Positions 1 to 25,486 of a stretch of 64,000 nt of DNA are shown piece after piece (within the stretch, counting starts at the first letter, position 1; each line of letters opens with the position of its first letter). The notes below the pieces were generated by a model. The model ran no database searches and was not told the DNA's origin. It was given only the letters and a program-made list of their open reading frames with translations. The position numbers and the translations under genes are program-made. Source of the DNA: a virus (lineage: Duplodnaviria > Caudoviricetes); the IMG/VR virus record IMGVR_UViG_3300033519_000155, positions 22,925-86,924 of that record, one strand, 5' to 3'.

Positions 1-353
1 AATTCTCTTCCACATTCGCATTTATCATTATAAAAGTCTAAACATCCCCCACAAAAATAACCAGATAATCCACAGGAACATTTCCAAGCGTAATAAACCA
101 CTTTACCCTTATCTTCTCCGCATCTATCACAAATTGTATAACCCGATGCTCTTTCTTTTACTTTTAAATACGCTTGCTCTAATTCAAGATTTATATGGGC
201 AAACGCATCACTTATTTGAGTATCCATATCTTTTAACTGACAGGAAATTTCTATAACCATATCTTGAAATTTCTCCCTAACATTTTTTTCTAAGTCATGA
301 AATTTTGTTTTTAATACATTATATTCTTTATAAAGCTCTCTCTTTTCATTCAT
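1..353 (-). CDS. Hypothetical protein, coiled-coil plus Cys-rich C-terminus (partial, runs off window)
   Basis: Hand-translated MNEKRELYKEY...CDRCGED...CSCG...CGGC...CECG; GGAGG upstream; not in ORF track. Confidence 0.75.
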   Translation of the reverse strand, partial: MNEKRELYKEYNVLKTKFHDLEKNVREKFQDMVIEISCQLKDMDTQISDAFAHINLELEQAYLKVKERASGYTICDRCGEDKGKVVYYAWKCSCGLSGYFCGGCLDFYNDKCECGRE

Positions 354-17609: not shown

Positions 17610-17735
17610 ATGACAGAGTTTGAAAAAGAAGTATTAGGAAAAGTAGATAGAATTTGCAGAGTTGCAACATACATATTCGCTTTACTTCTATTGGACATAA
17701 TAGGAAGTATTATATTTTTCTCAGCACCTAAATAA
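17610..17735 (+). CDS. 41-aa membrane peptide
   Basis: Hand-translated MTEFEKEVLGKVDRICRVATYIFALLLLDIIGSIIFFSAPK; followed by a terminator. Confidence 0.7.
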   Translation: MTEFEKEVLGKVDRICRVATYIFALLLLDIIGSIIFFSAPK

Positions 17736-18421: not shown

Positions 18422-19882
18422 TTATAATAATATTTCTTCTGTTATAGGAACTAAATGTAAAGTAGTTAAATCCTCTGAGTATTTAAACATTCTCCCATAA
18501 CCAATAAAATTTTTATAAGGAGAAGCTTTCTTTCTTGCTTTTCTTGTTTTGTAGGGTTTCCGTTTCTTTCGAGGTTTAACTATTATTTCCTCAGATATGA
18601 TATGTGGAGTATAGTGTTTTTGATAAAGTTCTTCTTGTTCTGGTGTCAGGGGTAATGTTTTTTCTACACTGGGAGCTATTGTTTCAATAACTCCAGTTCT
18701 AGCATCTCCACAAGGATAAGTTTCACTCTTTTCCTTGCTTCGTGGAATTTCTTCCTTTACGGTATTACCGCAGGTTGCCGCACACAACATTCGATTTTTA
18801 AGGTTACGTGCAGAATTAACATTACGGTCTTCCTCCATACCACAATTTGAACATTTATAAACACGTTCATTTAACTTTTGTTTTTGCTCTGCTCCACAGC
18901 AGGAACAAATTTGACTTGTCTTATATTCATCAACAAAATAAACAGTTCTTCCTTCACGCTCTGCTAAAGTCTTAAAGGTGCGTAAGAACAAATCTTTTGA
19001 TGGCATAACCATATTTTTATTACCTACAAATATCTGTCCTTCGGGATTATGCTGGAGAAAACTGTGGATTTTTTCTTCATATTTTCTTTTTAGGTATCTC
19101 TTTACTTTACGTTCCAGTTTATCAATTCTTATTGCTAAATCTCTTTTCTTACTGTTAGATAAGTATTTATGATTATTTTTAGTTTTAAGAAGAGTTTTCA
19201 GGTGTTTTATTTTTTTGTTTGACCTGTCTAAATAAGGTATTATTTCAGGGGCAGTTTCCTTATATCCTTTGTCTGTTGTGATTAAGTCTATTCTGCCACA
19301 GTCAACAAATATTTTTTCTATGTTTTCAGATATTTCTATTGAATATGGGATATGAAAGTTTAAAAAGATTTCATTTGTATTTTTATTCTGGTAAACCACT
19401 AAATCTGTTATTTTACACTCAGGGACAGGGTGCTGTAAGTTAACAGTTATATTAGATTGGTTTTTTCCTGTATGCAAGCTAATAGTGTATTTGTCTATTA
19501 GGGTAAATGCTTTACGAGAGTAACGCATCGCAAAAATATATCCGGGTTCTTGCTGTTTTAACTGTTTGGCAGTTACAGCGTTACCCCGAATATCTCTAAA
19601 AATATTACTATAGACATAGCTTGATACTAAAGATGATTGTTCAAACTTACGTATATGTTGTAAGGAATTGCTTTTTAAATGATTGAATATTTTATTATTC
19701 TGTAAATCTGATGGGTTCTTTACACTGTTACAGAAATGGTTATAAACCTCTCTACAATAGAAGGATAGTCTGATTAACGTATTATGTAAATCTTTTGTGT
19801 AATAAGCTTTTATACTCTGAGTTTTAAAACCATCTATTTTCATTAAATAATTTTTACACCTTTTATTAAAATCTGTTGACAT
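18422..19882 (-). CDS. tnpB: Orphan TnpB-like protein, probably nuclease-dead, with long C-terminal extension
   Basis: RuvC-I IFVDCG; canonical RuvC-II E replaced (IFVGN) with alternative E in VDEYKTS; Zn finger CSCC/CSNC; RuvC-III DRNVNSARNL; no tnpA; alternative start 19843. Confidence 0.88.
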   Translation of the reverse strand: MSTDFNKRCKNYLMKIDGFKTQSIKAYYTKDLHNTLIRLSFYCREVYNHFCNSVKNPSDLQNNKIFNHLKSNSLQHIRKFEQSSLVSSYVYSNIFRDIRGNAVTAKQLKQQEPGYIFAMRYSRKAFTLIDKYTISLHTGKNQSNITVNLQHPVPECKITDLVVYQNKNTNEIFLNFHIPYSIEISENIEKIFVDCGRIDLITTDKGYKETAPEIIPYLDRSNKKIKHLKTLLKTKNNHKYLSNSKKRDLAIRIDKLERKVKRYLKRKYEEKIHSFLQHNPEGQIFVGNKNMVMPSKDLFLRTFKTLAEREGRTVYFVDEYKTSQICSCCGAEQKQKLNERVYKCSNCGMEEDRNVNSARNLKNRMLCAATCGNTVKEEIPRSKEKSETYPCGDARTGVIETIAPSVEKTLPLTPEQEELYQKHYTPHIISEEIIVKPRKKRKPYKTRKARKKASPYKNFIGYGRMFKYSEDLTTLHLVPITEEILL

Positions 19883-20292: not shown

Positions 20293-21198
20293 TCAACATC
20301 GAGAGAGAATATCCCTTGCATATTTTACACCTACGGAATTCAATCCCTGATTATATGCTATGCTCATGACCATAGCATGTTGTCGGTTAAATTCCGCTAG
20401 TTGAATTCTTGAAAAAATCTGTGTTCTTATCCAATCCAGATAAAAGCAACCACAGTGAATATTTATATCTATATTAAAAGGGTCTGACCCTTCCGGGAGA
20501 TTTAATTTCTTCAAGCACTCTTCAAAAGTTGCAGGAAGAAGTTGCATTAATCCTTTTGCATTAGAGGAGGAAACTGCTCTAGGATTAAAGGAACTCTCTC
20601 TTCTTATTACATTAGAAATATAAGAGTTTTTCTGAGTTCCTAAAGGGTTTAAAAAATATTTTTCGGAATACAGGGAGATTGCTTTATTTATTATTTGCAT
20701 TTCTGTATCTATATGAGGACTAAACACAGGGACAATAGGTTTTAGTGTATGCCTTTGATTGTAATACCATAAAGCTTTATCTCTAATTAGCTCATAAACA
20801 TTCTTTTCTTGTCCTTTAAGATACTTTCTGCAATCCCATCGTTCTGAGGGATAACCGTCTAATTGAGCAAAATGAGCATGGTCGTAAACATCTTCAATAG
20901 GTATGTCGTGTTTACTCATAAGATTAGCAACTAGGGTTGCAGCAAGTTCTATTTGCTCTAATCGAGGAGGGCAATCCCCATCTGTTTTTTCAGTCATATT
21001 AAGTCCAGAGCATATAGTAACACCAATATTATCTGTATTTCTTCTCCAAGTATGAGCTAAAATATCATCGTCAGAGTCACACATCTGAACTACTTTAGCT
21101 TTACCTAATTTTTTATCAAAAGTAATTGAATAATGATAATCAGGAGAGCAATATGTATAGTTCCCGGCACTCCAATGTAATGTTACAATTTTACCCAT
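20293..21198 (-). CDS. Endolysin: amidase-like N-terminus plus SLT lytic transglycosylase
   Basis: LHWSAG...YHY...HTWRRNTDNIGV; RRESSFNPRAVSSSNAKGLMQL, AYNQG. Confidence 0.9.
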   Translation of the reverse strand: MGKIVTLHWSAGNYTYCSPDYHYSITFDKKLGKAKVVQMCDSDDDILAHTWRRNTDNIGVTICSGLNMTEKTDGDCPPRLEQIELAATLVANLMSKHDIPIEDVYDHAHFAQLDGYPSERWDCRKYLKGQEKNVYELIRDKALWYYNQRHTLKPIVPVFSPHIDTEMQIINKAISLYSEKYFLNPLGTQKNSYISNVIRRESSFNPRAVSSSNAKGLMQLLPATFEECLKKLNLPEGSDPFNIDINIHCGCFYLDWIRTQIFSRIQLAEFNRQHAMVMSIAYNQGLNSVGVKYARDILSRC

Positions 21199-21314
21199 AA
21201 TTACATTCCTTTCTTATTTTACTAATTTTAATTTAAGAAGTATTCTAAATATTCCGTAATAAAAGAAAAAAGCAATTTGCATAATTATAAATAGAACACA
21301 TCTTTTTATAAAGG

Positions 21315-21722
21315 TCATTTCTTTATTTTTCCTATAAGAACATTTATCCCATTAACTACATTGGAAACAGACTCAGGGAAATTGAATTTTGTGTGTTCGA
21401 GTTCAGGAAGATTTGCCTGTGCAACTTTTACTGCTTTTTCAAGTTTCTGTTCAGAACTCATTCCGAAAGGCATAGAAATTTCTTCGGCATATCTTATACC
21501 TTTTAAAAGTTCATTAAGAATTTTTGGTTCATGTTCATTTATTTTTGATACTGCATTTTTGAAGGGTTGATAAGGAACTGCATCTGCCACTGTTCCTAAT
21601 ACTTCTCTAATAGCTTCATCTTTGCTATCTACGTAATTAAGGAAATCTTTTACTGTATCTTTTACACCTACGTATTTTTGAATTGTGTCTCTCATTTCAT
21701 TAACTGTTTCTATAAAACCCAT
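21315..21722 (-). CDS. Lysis-associated protein resembling the soluble part of LL-H-type holins
   Basis: GIRYAEE...SEQKLEKAV motif; no clear TM helix; precedes endolysin. Confidence 0.45.
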   Translation of the reverse strand: MGFIETVNEMRDTIQKYVGVKDTVKDFLNYVDSKDEAIREVLGTVADAVPYQPFKNAVSKINEHEPKILNELLKGIRYAEEISMPFGMSSEQKLEKAVKVAQANLPELEHTKFNFPESVSNVVNGINVLIGKIKK

Positions 21723-21736
21723 TAATAAACACTCCT

Positions 21737-23326
21737 TTAATCTAATGTAAAATAAAATGTTGTTCCTCTGTCAGGTTCGCTGTCAAACCAAATATTTCCT
21801 CCATGTTCTAAAATTATTTTCTTTACTAAAGAGAGTCCTATACCTGTGCCGGGATACCTTTTAGAGTGAATTCTAAAGAAAGGTTTACATAGATTTTTTG
21901 CACTCTCCATATTAAAACCAATTCCGTTATCACTAATAAAGTAAATATCTTGGTCTCCTGTATTAGACTTACCGAATTGAATTTTTAATTTTCTGTAAAC
22001 ATCTCTATACTTTAGACTATTACTTATAAAATTTTCAAACACCGAGCGAAATAATGTTTCATCTACTTCTGCATATAAATCTTCTTGGATAATTATTTCA
22101 GGAAATTCCCTTGTGTCGAGTTTTAACAGGGTGTTGTAACACTGTTTAAATAATAAACTCAAATTTACTTTTTGAATATTGAGAGAAGCTTTCCCGATTT
22201 TTAGAAGTCCTATGAGTGAGTGAAGAGTTTCTAATATATGGTGCAGTTCTAAATGAATACTGCCCATAATTTTCATATGTTTTTCGCAGTTTTTTTCTTC
22301 CTCATTTAGCAATAGATGAAAATACTGGTCTATTGTTTGTATGGGTGTTTGAACATCATGAGATAAAGCGGAAACATAATTTTCCAGTTCAAGATTTTTA
22401 TATGTAATTTCTTGGGTTCTTTCGGTAATAGTTTCTTCTAAATTTTCTTTTGCCTGTATAAGAGTATCTTCAAATTGTTTTTTAAGTATATAGAACCCTA
22501 CTAATTCTGCACAAATTTGTAGAATATCAATAATATCCTGTGATATGTTTAGTTCTTCAACGGTATTATCAAATTCTAAAAATCCCCATAGCTTATCTTC
22601 TATTATTATAGGTAATAATACTAAAGTTCTTACTTCTAAACTTTTTAAGAAAGCAAATTCTTCCTCAGAAAGATGCTTTGCATGGGTAATAAGTGGTCGT
22701 TTTTCCTCACATAGTAATTTTAAAGTTTTAAAGGTATCACAGTCTATTTTTTGTAATTTAGGGTCTAACCCAACAAAACGAATTCCTGTTTTACAGGTTT
22801 CAATAATTTTTTGTAAGTATTTTTCTTTTTCAAAATACTGAAATATACAACAAGAGGTAAATGCTGAAACATCAAGCATATGTTTTAATCCTGCTTCTAA
22901 TGCAAGAATAAGTCCACCATTTTTTAAGAGTGCCTTAGAACATTTGTATAAAGCACTCTTATAATTTAATAAAGTTTTTAGCTTTTTTTCTGATAAATTT
23001 TTAGTTGTAACGTCTTTTACAGCTACTAAAAAATAATCTTTGCGTGAATTACTTATATTAGCTACTTTAAACTCTCCGTAAAATTTTTGTCCACCTTTTT
23101 TTATTTGAACTGCTTCAAATTCTGACATTTCTTTAGTTATTTTATTTCGGAAAATAGAAAAATCATATTCTCCTATTAAACATCTTTTGTCTAATCTATA
23201 GAGAACTTCTGCTTTTCTATTTGCATATGTAATCTGCCCTTTTTCAACAACAAATGTTGCTTCAGGATACTCCTCAAAAATTTCATAAAAATTGTCAATC
23301 TTTTTCCTAAATAGAAACCCTAGCAT
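21737..23326 (-). CDS. Cytoplasmic sensor histidine kinase (PAS-GAF-HisKA-HATPase_c)
   Basis: PAS (EEYPEATFVV...ITYANRKAE); GAF (LVLLPIIIEDKLWGFLEFD); H box SHDVQTP; N box NFISNSLKY; G1 DNGIG; F box; G2 GTGIGL; ATG 23326 preferred. Confidence 0.95.
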   Translation of the reverse strand: MLGFLFRKKIDNFYEIFEEYPEATFVVEKGQITYANRKAEVLYRLDKRCLIGEYDFSIFRNKITKEMSEFEAVQIKKGGQKFYGEFKVANISNSRKDYFLVAVKDVTTKNLSEKKLKTLLNYKSALYKCSKALLKNGGLILALEAGLKHMLDVSAFTSCCIFQYFEKEKYLQKIIETCKTGIRFVGLDPKLQKIDCDTFKTLKLLCEEKRPLITHAKHLSEEEFAFLKSLEVRTLVLLPIIIEDKLWGFLEFDNTVEELNISQDIIDILQICAELVGFYILKKQFEDTLIQAKENLEETITERTQEITYKNLELENYVSALSHDVQTPIQTIDQYFHLLLNEEEKNCEKHMKIMGSIHLELHHILETLHSLIGLLKIGKASLNIQKVNLSLLFKQCYNTLLKLDTREFPEIIIQEDLYAEVDETLFRSVFENFISNSLKYRDVYRKLKIQFGKSNTGDQDIYFISDNGIGFNMESAKNLCKPFFRIHSKRYPGTGIGLSLVKKIILEHGGNIWFDSEPDRGTTFYFTLD

Positions 23327-23340
23327 AGAAACACCAACTT

Positions 23341-23754
23341 CTATTTTCCACCCGGAAAGAATTTTTCCCAATTTGTTAAAATATAAATGACTATTGCTCC
23401 AAATCCACCACCAACAGCATATAATACTTTTTGATACCACGCAATATTATTGTCCTGTTGTTTATTTCCGTTCCTTACCATCTCCTGTAATAATTCTATA
23501 TTAGCGTTCTCGGCAGTTCTAACAGCAAGGTCTTGTTTTCGAGCAATTTCAGCTACAACAGCAGTTAGTGTATTTACTGCGACTTTCATTTCAACTATAT
23601 TACCAGAAAAATACTCATACGCTCGAACCATCATAGCAATATCCTGATTGCTAATATTCTTATTTGGGTCTATTTGAGTTATTGGTGTCTGCGTGTTCTG
23701 TAAATTTGTCTGAGAGTCCAAAGCTGTCACCTCTTTTGTATATTGTATTTGCAA
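23341..23754 (-). CDS. Putative holin (XhlA-like: coiled coil plus C-terminal TM helix)
   Basis: WYQKVLYAVGGGFGAIVIYIL hydrophobic segment; lysis context; alternative TTG start behind GAGGTG. Confidence 0.6.
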   Translation of the reverse strand: MQIQYTKEVTALDSQTNLQNTQTPITQIDPNKNISNQDIAMMVRAYEYFSGNIVEMKVAVNTLTAVVAEIARKQDLAVRTAENANIELLQEMVRNGNKQQDNNIAWYQKVLYAVGGGFGAIVIYILTNWEKFFPGGK

Positions 23755-24379
23755 ATCCTAATAGATTATCACGACTGGAATTAATTTCGTCAAGAGATAA
23801 ATCACCATAAAAACATAAAGGTGAAGAATTTCTTTCTTTCTGTTCATTCGCTGCCCAAGTTCCACTCCATTCATCAGGAATATCTAATTTAGTTTTACTT
23901 AATTTTTCTTCTGTTTTTCCAAAATCGCAATAAGAAAGGGCATCAGCAAAAGTTTTTACAGGTTTTGTTACTTTTATACCTTTAAAAACATTATCTAATG
24001 CTTTAAGGTCAAAAGGTTTATGTAAGTAATCTACAATATTTAATTTCTTCATTATAACTTCTGAAATTGGACATTCATCACTAAAACCAGTCATTAAGCA
24101 AATTTTAACATTTGGATTTATTGCATTTAAATATTTAACAACATCTTCACCTGTCATTCCCGGCATACGATAATCTGTGAGAACTAAATCTAATTCTTTA
24201 GAGTGTTCTTCAAAATAATCAATACCCAATTCTGGAGAAAGCATTGTTATTATTTCATAATTATCTTCAAATACTTCTTTCATTACTTGGAGGAAGAAAA
24301 TATCATCATCTATCATTAGTATTCTTTTTCTATTACAGTTAATTGATTTATTAATTTTATTTTTTCCTTTTATTATCAT
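23660..24379 (-). CDS. Response regulator (REC plus unrecognised ~100-aa C-terminal region)
   Basis: ILMIDDD, LTDYRMPGMTG, LMTG, HKPF all intact; AGGAGGT SD before ATG 24379. Confidence 0.93.
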   Translation of the reverse strand: MIIKGKNKINKSINCNRKRILMIDDDIFFLQVMKEVFEDNYEIITMLSPELGIDYFEEHSKELDLVLTDYRMPGMTGEDVVKYLNAINPNVKICLMTGFSDECPISEVIMKKLNIVDYLHKPFDLKALDNVFKGIKVTKPVKTFADALSYCDFGKTEEKLSKTKLDIPDEWSGTWAANEQKERNSSPLCFYGDLSLDEINSSRDNLLGFANTIYKRGDSFGLSDKFTEHADTNNSNRPK

Positions 24380-24395
24380 TATTCTTACCTCCTTT

Positions 24396-24668
24396 TTATG
24401 TAATATCAACGTCTATGTCTAAAACGCCAAGGATAGTTGTCTGAATATTAATTTGTGTTTCAATAATGTTAACTTCAGTTCTTATATTGTTTATATAAGC
24501 AACCATGTCTAAATATTCCTGTTCAATATAACCAAAATCTGACCACTTATGTAAATTTAATTGTTTATACTCAGGATATAGGTTTGTTATTTGTGCATAA
24601 GCTTGGTCTTTGAGAAAGGTAATTCTTATAACTTTCCACTCTTCCAGAGTGTGTTGTGTGTAATACAT
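24396..24668 (-). CDS. Tail-fibre assembly-like protein
   Basis: TLEEWKVIRITFLKDQAY-type helix; follows Gly-rich fibre gene. Confidence 0.55.
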   Translation of the reverse strand: MYYTQHTLEEWKVIRITFLKDQAYAQITNLYPEYKQLNLHKWSDFGYIEQEYLDMVAYINNIRTEVNIIETQINIQTTILGVLDIDVDIT

Positions 24669-24842
24669 TCAGGTAAATGTATCAGTTTCCGGGTCATAAC
24701 ACATACCAACCATTACAGAAGGATTTTCTGTAATGTCATAAAGTGTTAGTCCTTCTTCTAAAATAGGAGGATTTTCTTCCTCCCACTCAAAAATATTTAT
24801 TACACTATTATTTTGTATTACTGCATATACTTTATGATACAT
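24669..24842 (-). CDS. 57-aa tail-fibre chaperone-like protein
   Basis: Hand-translated MYHKVYAVIQNNSVINIFEWEEENPPILEEGLTLYDITENPSVMVGMCYDPETDTFT; GGAGG SD. Confidence 0.75.
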   Translation of the reverse strand: MYHKVYAVIQNNSVINIFEWEEENPPILEEGLTLYDITENPSVMVGMCYDPETDTFT

Positions 24843-25486
24843 AAACCCTTTCCTCCACTACCACCATTTCCATTAGTATGAGCACAATATCCTCCACCAC
24901 CACCTGCACCACTATTTGCAGAAGCGTTTCCTCCAGCAACACCAGAACTATTTCCCCCGTTACCTCCAGTGCCATTGTAACCTCCACCCCCACCACCTCC
25001 GCAATTTCCAGAATTTCCGATAGTTCCACCAGAAAATCTTTGACTACTTCCACCGGGAAATGCTTTAATTCCTCCGTTACAAGCACCATATCCCCATTGA
25101 GGAACAGCTTGTTTTCCACCTAGTCCACCATTCACAGATAAATAAGTTCCTAATGTAGAAATTCCACCATTACCCCCATTTACAACAGTTGCATTTCCTC
25201 CTGTTCCACCTGAACCTAATACTATTGAAATAGATTGACTGGGGGTTACATTTACAGGGAAATTTTCATACCAATAACCAGAACCTCCACCTCCACCTGC
25301 TCTAGCACCTCCACCTCCACCCCCAACAAGTGTTGCGTATAACATATAAACATTTGCTGGAACAATGAAAGTTCCAGAGGAAGTAAAGGTTTGTGTAATT
25401 AAAGAGTCCATGTCAATATCAACAGGAGTTAATATTCTTTCTTCTGGAAAACCCTCTAAATTTACGACTAAAACTTTACTTCCCAT
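24818..25486 (-). CDS. Glycine-rich tail fibre/virion protein
   Basis: TFTSSGTFIVPANVYMLYATLVGGGGGG...GGSGGKGLCIIKY. Confidence 0.8.
   Translation of the reverse strand: MGSKVLVVNLEGFPEERILTPVDIDMDSLITQTFTSSGTFIVPANVYMLYATLVGGGGGGARAGGGGGSGYWYENFPVNVTPSQSISIVLGSGGTGGNATVVNGGNGGISTLGTYLSVNGGLGGKQAVPQWGYGACNGGIKAFPGGSSQRFSGGTIGNSGNCGGGGGGGYNGTGGNGGNSSGVAGGNASANSGAGGGGGYCAHTNGNGGSGGKGLCIIKYMQ

Follow-up and report, generated by a model that had tools for sequence, protein, structure and literature searches.

A phage two-component pair interleaved with two small phage genes upstream of an endolysin: a candidate phosphorelay for lysis control

We analysed a stretch of 64,000 nucleotides (hereafter, the window) from a virus of the Caudoviricetes (Duplodnaviria), corresponding to positions 22,925 to 86,924 of the IMG/VR virus record IMGVR_UViG_3300033519_000155. 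The source record is 86.9 kb long, was estimated to be 54% complete and belongs to a large tailed phage of microbial mats. On the minus strand of the window, at the end of a long late operon of structural genes, five genes follow one another in the order of transcription: a response regulator (RR), a 97-aa protein with a single C-terminal membrane helix (sTM), a soluble histidine kinase (HK), a 135-aa helical soluble protein (s135) and an endolysin. The first four genes recur in other uncultured phages as a unit, and therefore we regard it as a real signalling module.

The intergenic gaps are 25 nt between RR and sTM, 14 nt between sTM and HK, 14 nt between HK and s135, and 116 nt between s135 and the endolysin. 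The first-pass annotation, which was made by a model from the sequence alone, had described here a complete two-component system interleaved with the lysis genes, tightly coupled and with no terminators noticed. The pair is indeed complete and interleaved with two small phage genes, all five genes being on the minus strand and the phosphorelay residues being intact. The claim on terminators stands too, as the only terminator-like hairpin inside the unit is a weak one within the HK gene. Regarding the coupling, the s135-endolysin junction, with a gap of 116 nt instead of 14 nt, is not tightly coupled. The start sites are preceded by strong AAGGAGG-type ribosome-binding sites, as is the case of the RR ATG, which has AAGGAGG before it, and these strong sites argue against a Bacteroidota host.

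In the comparison with a relative that is 86% identical to the window (contig L005; relatives are named below by their contig labels), dN/dS was 0.20 for RR, 0.05 for sTM, 0.10 for HK, 0.16 for s135 and 0.08 for the endolysin, values which indicate that all five genes are under purifying selection. Furthermore, identical pieces of the region are present in four microbial-mat sequencing runs from 2020-2023, and no RNA run was listed as carrying it. The joints found in these runs had short sides only (21-24 nt) and were judged unreliable, so that they are uninformative on variants without the pair.

The response regulator (23660-24379, minus strand) consists of a REC domain followed by a tail of about 100 aa. 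The Response_reg match (E 4e-17) corresponds to residues 30-140 of the longer RR open reading frame. The residues D24-D26, D69, T97 and K121 are invariant in the alignment of four RR homologues, that is, RR has the acidic pocket, the phospho-acceptor Asp and the conserved Thr and Lys by which two-component receivers are recognised. In the C-terminal part of about 100 aa, domain searches found no known domain and no DNA-binding domain. A regulator without a DNA-binding or output domain needs a protein target, and the neighbours that are inherited together with it are the obvious candidates.

The kinase (21737-23326, minus strand, 529 aa) has a PAS-GAF-HisKA-HATPase_c architecture, with matches to HATPase_c (2e-20), PAS_9 (1e-4) and GAF (1e-4) and a weak one to HisKA (0.01). 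The N, G1 and G2 boxes of the ATP-binding domain are all present, and the residues that are invariant in five homologues include the H-box His323, contained in the motif LSHD[VL]Q.P, as well as N432/N436, D466xG468xG470 and G493xG495xG497. Together with the four RR homologues, this bears out the early statement that all the phosphorelay residues are intact. For phosphotransfer between HK and RR, the joint inheritance of the pair in six contigs gives support of an indirect kind only. The kinase had also been described as having no transmembrane segment, and hydropathy agrees: the protein is free of membrane helices, its single hydrophobic window (224-242) being a charged GAF strand. A redox, metabolite or light cue had been proposed as well, and here nothing in the kinase points to a signal. 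Domain searches gave no match to a phytochrome or PHY domain, neither a LOV-type nor a bilin-type Cys motif was seen in the alignment, and no chromophore or nucleotide-binding motif was recognised. One cysteine, C129, is invariant among the homologues and lies outside any known chromophore motif.

In a quick tree built on kinase cores, the six kinases from phages group in a single clade (SH-aLRT 99), which is set on a long branch within the 115 closest cellular cores and indicates that the phage kinases are of single origin. The searches of 185,579 species genomes, of IMG/VR and of the JGI metagenomes gave no full-length relative and nothing that shares the sensor region, and the full-length relatives are confined to a few metagenomic contigs. 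The scan of the JGI metagenomes returned generic GAF kinases only, at 30% identity or less, and the GenBank phage collection gave only partial matches to the kinase core, mostly in host-like records.

The sTM gene (23341-23634, minus strand) codes for a protein whose N-terminal part is hydrophilic and whose only hydrophobic helix spans residues 70-88. Ahead of this helix, the sTM of the window has the motif W[YF]QKVLY in common with those of L002, L004 and L098. A CK[EDQ]C cysteine pair lies directly before the helix in the sTM types of L002 (9761-9997), L098 (8092-8307), L089 (107-448) and L097 (2-244), and the window sTM is without it. The reading frame of sTM is open for 40 codons further upstream (23635-23754), overlapping the end of the RR gene, and L005 has a similar open frame there. 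AAGAGGTGA stands before a TTG at 23721, and sTM is 126 aa long in the public gene call; like dual-start holins, it may be translated from two starts. Among the language-model neighbours, the nearest named Atlas clusters are DUF2951, DUF7201 and XhlA, and the Atlas feature score of sTM for XhlA, 0.89, is a lead only. We rejected its identification as a unimolecular spanin because it has no N-terminal lipoprotein signal. Regarding its position, sTM is 2.1 kb upstream of the lysin in the window, is separated from it only by the s135 homologue in L097, and is far from any lysin in L002, L004 and L098. No other small membrane protein lies near the lysin, and no multi-helix holin candidate was found in the 86.9-kb record.

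The s135 gene (21315-21722, minus strand) belongs, according to the profile search, to a small phage family of about 21 clusters at 50% identity, whose members have 100-175 aa, are helical and lack a membrane helix. Against the L002-type homologues, hhalign gave an E-value of 4.5e-5. Word-based protein searches with either sTM or s135 returned only the window's own protein and L005. There are weak leads to the soluble part of the LL-H proteins: the nearest Atlas clusters of s135 by language model carry PF09682 in 10-23% of their members, the best structural row is an LL-H cluster, and PF09682 is the only family matched by more than one s135 member (2 of 19, sub-threshold, best E 0.0094). The predicted structures were poor, with a pLDDT of 52 from four sequences and 46 from 19 sequences, too low for a fold search. 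An Hpt-like phosphotransfer role was discarded, since no histidine is conserved across the family.

The endolysin (20293-21198, minus strand) combines an Amidase_2 domain (1.5e-7) with an SLT lytic transglycosylase domain (1.2e-17), matches PHROG endolysin families too, and has neither a signal peptide nor a membrane helix. Its homologues come after s135-family genes in L005, L097 and L181. In the 116-nt spacer before it (21199-21314, minus strand), the 3' 65 nt (21199-21263), which adjoin the endolysin start, show about 91% identity to L005, whereas the synonymous sites are far more diverged. This conserved leader may be regulatory; its motif does not recur within the window. The 5' part of the spacer contains a promoter-like TTTATA-17-TATAAT, on which we did not rely because it is not conserved in L005.

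Five further contigs (L005, L002, L003, L004 and L098) retain the order RR-sTM-HK-s135. In L005 all five genes, endolysin included, follow one another as in the window, and its kinase is 87% identical over the full length. L002 (L003 has the same protein), L004 and L098 carry, in order, RR, a protein of 71-78 aa, HK and a protein of 112-118 aa. Their kinases are 32-34% identical to that of the window over the whole length, sensor region included, and the structural proteins of these distant carriers can barely be aligned with those of the window. In the L002 type the genes are 2-3 nt apart or overlapping. Furthermore, L090, a fragment of 2.2 kb, contains a kinase end which is 50% identical to the window HK and, 14 nt later, an s135 homologue (HK-s113). 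Thus, the synteny search proposed at first pass found regulator and kinase interleaved with both small genes again in diverged phages, and the fact that this interleaving is kept argues for a functional link. The shared order, the single kinase clade and the lack of a cellular match to the sensor region together indicate that the four genes were inherited or moved as one unit within phages.

The small genes also occur in relatives without the kinase. In L097 a tail-anchored sTM-type protein with a CKQC motif is followed by an s135 homologue and, 2 nt later, by a homologue of the window endolysin. L089 has an sTM-type and s135 pair, then a basic protein of 101 aa; upstream of its sTM, a 37-aa fragment ends in a KPF-like receiver motif and is too short to call. 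In L181, from a virus record of 183 kb, the s135 homologue adjoins an Amidase_2-SLT lysin 39% identical to that of the window, and there is no HATPase_c anywhere in the record. L181 came from one of the single-protein and profile scans of IMG/VR, which gave no relatives of the kinase, of the endolysin or of most s135 subgroups. In L089 and L097 both small types are present and the kinase is not, and in L181 s135 is found in a record free of any kinase; they therefore have a function of their own. L092-94, whose sheath is 60% identical to that of L004, keep the order s112-p230-sheath with neither RR nor HK, and upstream of s112 they have a 131-aa protein that carries an N-terminal helix, plus one of 66 aa rich in Cys. 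As a separate observation, L182 (1047-3340, in the 183-kb record G001, where no histidine kinase is present) has a REC-only regulator of 173 aa two genes away from a 159-aa tail-anchored sTM-like protein with CKTC before its helix, the profile similarity not being significant.

Regarding the surroundings of the unit, the late operon includes a tape-measure-like open reading frame of 2345 aa and tail-fibre-type proteins, among them a glycine-rich one at 24818-25486. After the tail-fibre genes come a 57-aa and a 90-aa gene, then RR-sTM-HK-s135-endolysin, a hairpin and a TnpB gene, and the replication genes are located further on. The 57-aa and 90-aa genes (24396-24842), upstream of RR, each correspond to one half of a 154-aa gene of L005 (461-925), by either a split or a fusion. 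The TnpB/Cas12f-like protein (18422-19882, 486 aa, with a TNB domain and a transposase PHROG) lies directly downstream of the endolysin terminator, and no transposase partner was seen. At 17610-17735 there is a 41-aa plus-strand open reading frame with a C-terminal membrane helix, the last of a block of small plus-strand genes. Just outside the window start (G000:C1:22191-22586) is a protein of 131 aa with a signal or anchor helix at its N-terminus and, by eye, a 3D/RlpA-type wall-hydrolase-like domain; it may serve the phage as a further lytic enzyme. A 411-aa Peptidase_C1 with a lipoprotein signal (L179, 18577-19812) follows the tail-fibre genes in the L098 phage; it has the look of a secreted or anchored cysteine protease rather than of an evident endolysin.

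The best explanation for this locus is a two-component module locked to two small phage proteins, which in the window lineage occupy the usual position of the holin. The conserved interleaving, the single origin of the kinases and the tight packing suggest that the phosphorelay works with sTM and/or s135. Since s135 lies directly before the same type of endolysin in three lineages and, together with sTM, fills the holin position, lysis control is the best single reading: a phage-specific phosphorelay in which the regulator without a DNA-binding domain would act on sTM and/or s135 to tune lysis. We give this reading a probability of roughly 40%. Late in infection, the soluble kinase would read a cytoplasmic cue through its PAS and GAF domains, autophosphorylate on His323 and pass the phosphate to Asp69 of RR. 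RR would then act by protein contact, the likeliest partners being the tail-anchored sTM and/or the helical s135, and in this way would advance or delay the membrane event that admits the signal-less Amidase_2-SLT endolysin to the wall. In this scheme we infer the phosphotransfer, the partners of RR, any holin activity of the two small proteins and the influence on the time of lysis. The more specific version, in which the PAS-GAF kinase senses a cytoplasmic metabolite, the redox state or an immune or second-messenger nucleotide of the host and a REC-only regulator bound to a tail-anchored protein of holin type decides the opening of the cell, thus forming a phosphorelay-gated lysis clock, seems unlikely to us.

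Several results weigh against lysis control. On the one hand, the family models do not support it. sTM matched no family in Pfam, PHROGs or NCBIfam and no holin model, and the XhlA model (PF10779) gave nothing by hmmscan at E 10, while the search of the one genome with it matched the tape-measure gene only. Likewise, s135 had no family match above threshold, and the holin, XhlA and LL-H models left it unmatched even in a one-genome search at E 10; the N-terminal membrane helix typical of LL-H proteins is absent (peak 19-residue hydropathy 0.79). The initial labels of "holin-like" for sTM and "LL-H-like" for s135 are thus not confirmed: both were drawn from architecture and position, with the Pfam, PHROG and NCBIfam holin models unmatched. 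Furthermore, about 54% of the genome is covered, and a canonical holin may lie in the remainder.

On the other hand, the location varies. In L002, L004 and L098 a large F5/F8-type tail fibre comes before the unit and a protein of 214-219 aa after it, followed by sheath and tube (the tail-terminator/sheath region), and in L098 the 10 kb or so to each side contain no lysin. In L090 it precedes baseplate genes, with no endolysin nearby, and the s135 homologue of L095 and L091 precedes a head maturation protease. The adjacency of the unit to the endolysin is therefore lineage-specific. Even in the window, the endolysin, behind a 116-nt spacer with a conserved leader, could be a separate unit. The first-pass annotation, which had proposed a signal-gated lysis timer, held that relatives lacking the pair or carrying it elsewhere would speak against that proposal, and we found both: the pair is lacking in L092-94, L097 and L181 and is elsewhere in L002, L004, L098 and L090. 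What survives of the timer is a pair that is complete and under selection, with a conserved interleaving and, in the window lineage, the holin position (its L097 and L181 counterparts being kinase-free); what does not is a general link to the endolysin and a match to the holin models.

The location in tail modules in three carrier lineages, together with the failure of the holin models, keeps two other explanations alive. The first one is a four-component signalling unit whose output is not lysis, with sTM as a tether or co-sensor and s135 as an anti-kinase, phosphatase or adaptor. Such a unit would sense the membrane or metabolic state late in infection, and its output could be, for instance, superinfection exclusion, host metabolism or virion maturation. 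We consider this explanation possible, although on the doubtful side. In bacteria, small membrane proteins encoded beside kinases often modulate those kinases, and in the L002 type RR, sTM and HK are tightly packed or overlapping. The placement within tail or baseplate modules in L002, L004, L098 and L090, the s135 relatives heading blocks of head and tail genes, and two small proteins that match no holin model also speak for it. Nevertheless, it does not account well for sTM and s135 types being found together without the kinase (L089 and L097), for s135 in the kinase-free record of L181, or for s135 being directly before the same endolysin type in three lineages.

The second one, which we find improbable, is an auxiliary pair (moron) captured once from a cell and carried at a module boundary, which would act on host signalling by cross-phosphorylation or by draining host kinases, the small genes being bystanders that travel with it by tight packing. 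The unit is always found after tail-fibre genes, which is a usual site of morons, and both genes are missing from a close relative of the L002 type whose sheath is 60% identical. Moreover, in full-text searches phage-borne kinases and regulators were met only as scattered auxiliary genes (PMC9599517; bioRxiv 10.64898/2026.05.02.722434), and kinase and regulator PHROG families exist among the matches. However, a moron would need two separate insertions flanking sTM, with the order then kept down to 32% identity and across genome contexts. The sensor region without a full-length cellular relative, the long private branch of the phage kinases, and a regulator without an output domain to reprogram host transcription also argue against it. 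Finally, chance adjacency or decaying functionless genes, which have nothing in their favour beyond the rarity of the unit, are already contradicted by the conservation data (dN/dS of 0.05-0.20, invariant catalytic residues, identical sequence in the four microbial-mat runs of 2020-2023 and gene order kept in six contigs), and we regard them as scarcely credible.

With respect to known systems, one of the closest is LytSR of Staphylococcus and Bacillus, a two-component system that controls the holin/antiholin-like LrgAB/CidAB; in both cases a His-Asp phosphorelay is linked to small membrane proteins, which in LytSR govern murein hydrolase access. However, LytS is a multi-helix membrane sensor and LytR a transcriptional regulator with a LytTR DNA-binding domain, whereas here the kinase is a soluble PAS-GAF protein, the regulator has no DNA-binding domain, and the system is phage-encoded with the small genes interleaved with the signalling genes. 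Antiholins also control lysis, as in the dual start S107/S105 of lambda and the lysis inhibition by RI of T4. They resemble the reading of lysis control in that a signal-dependent delay of holin triggering is involved, and sTM possibly has a dual start as well, but they work without a phosphorelay and have no sequence relation to this unit.

In the cassette xhlA-xhlB-xlyA of PBSX, XhlA is a membrane protein needed alongside the holin XhlB and the lysin XlyA for lysis (PMC5589764, PMC10630273). What sTM shares with XhlA and the XhlA-type proteins of Firmicutes phages is its small size, a C-terminal membrane helix behind a hydrophilic N-terminal stretch, and a place after tail-fibre genes and upstream of an amidase endolysin; the difference is that sTM does not match the XhlA model and that no XhlB-type multi-helix holin is present here. 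We know of no kinase or regulator in cassettes of the PBSX/XhlA type. As for the LL-H "holins" (PF09682, Phage_holin_6_1), s135 is likewise small, helical and directly upstream of an endolysin, and its Atlas clusters are partly PF09682; nevertheless, it lacks the N-terminal helix and stays below every model cut-off, and members of its family also precede head and tail genes. Reported examples of histidine kinases carried by phages are the AgrC kinase encoded with agr genes by a myovirus of Clostridioides difficile (PMC4124054) and, in pelagiphages, kinases adjoining curli genes (PMC9599517). Those are single kinases or host-like modules, whereas the pair of the window is complete and phage-specific, has a sensor region of its own and is conserved along with the two small phage genes.

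Full-text literature searches found no published description of a natural phage lysis cassette with a two-component system. What appears to be new here, judging from the comparison of the sequences, is the conserved order RR-sTM-HK-s135, a phage kinase clade with no full-length relative in species genomes, and the purifying selection on the five genes. Lysis timing sets the burst size and fitness of a phage and, to our knowledge, it is controlled by holin-intrinsic clocks and antiholins and not by a sensory phosphorelay. A phosphorelay-gated lysis clock, if true, would be the first known case of a two-component system deciding the lysis of a phage. Even without a lysis output, this is a phage-specific two-component clade with a conserved small membrane partner, and it brings new material on how soluble kinases are wired. 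If the pair is indeed welded to genes in the holin position, this would show that phages can couple lysis, or another late decision, to a sensed intracellular signal, and the four genes would make a compact system amenable to tests in a laboratory host.

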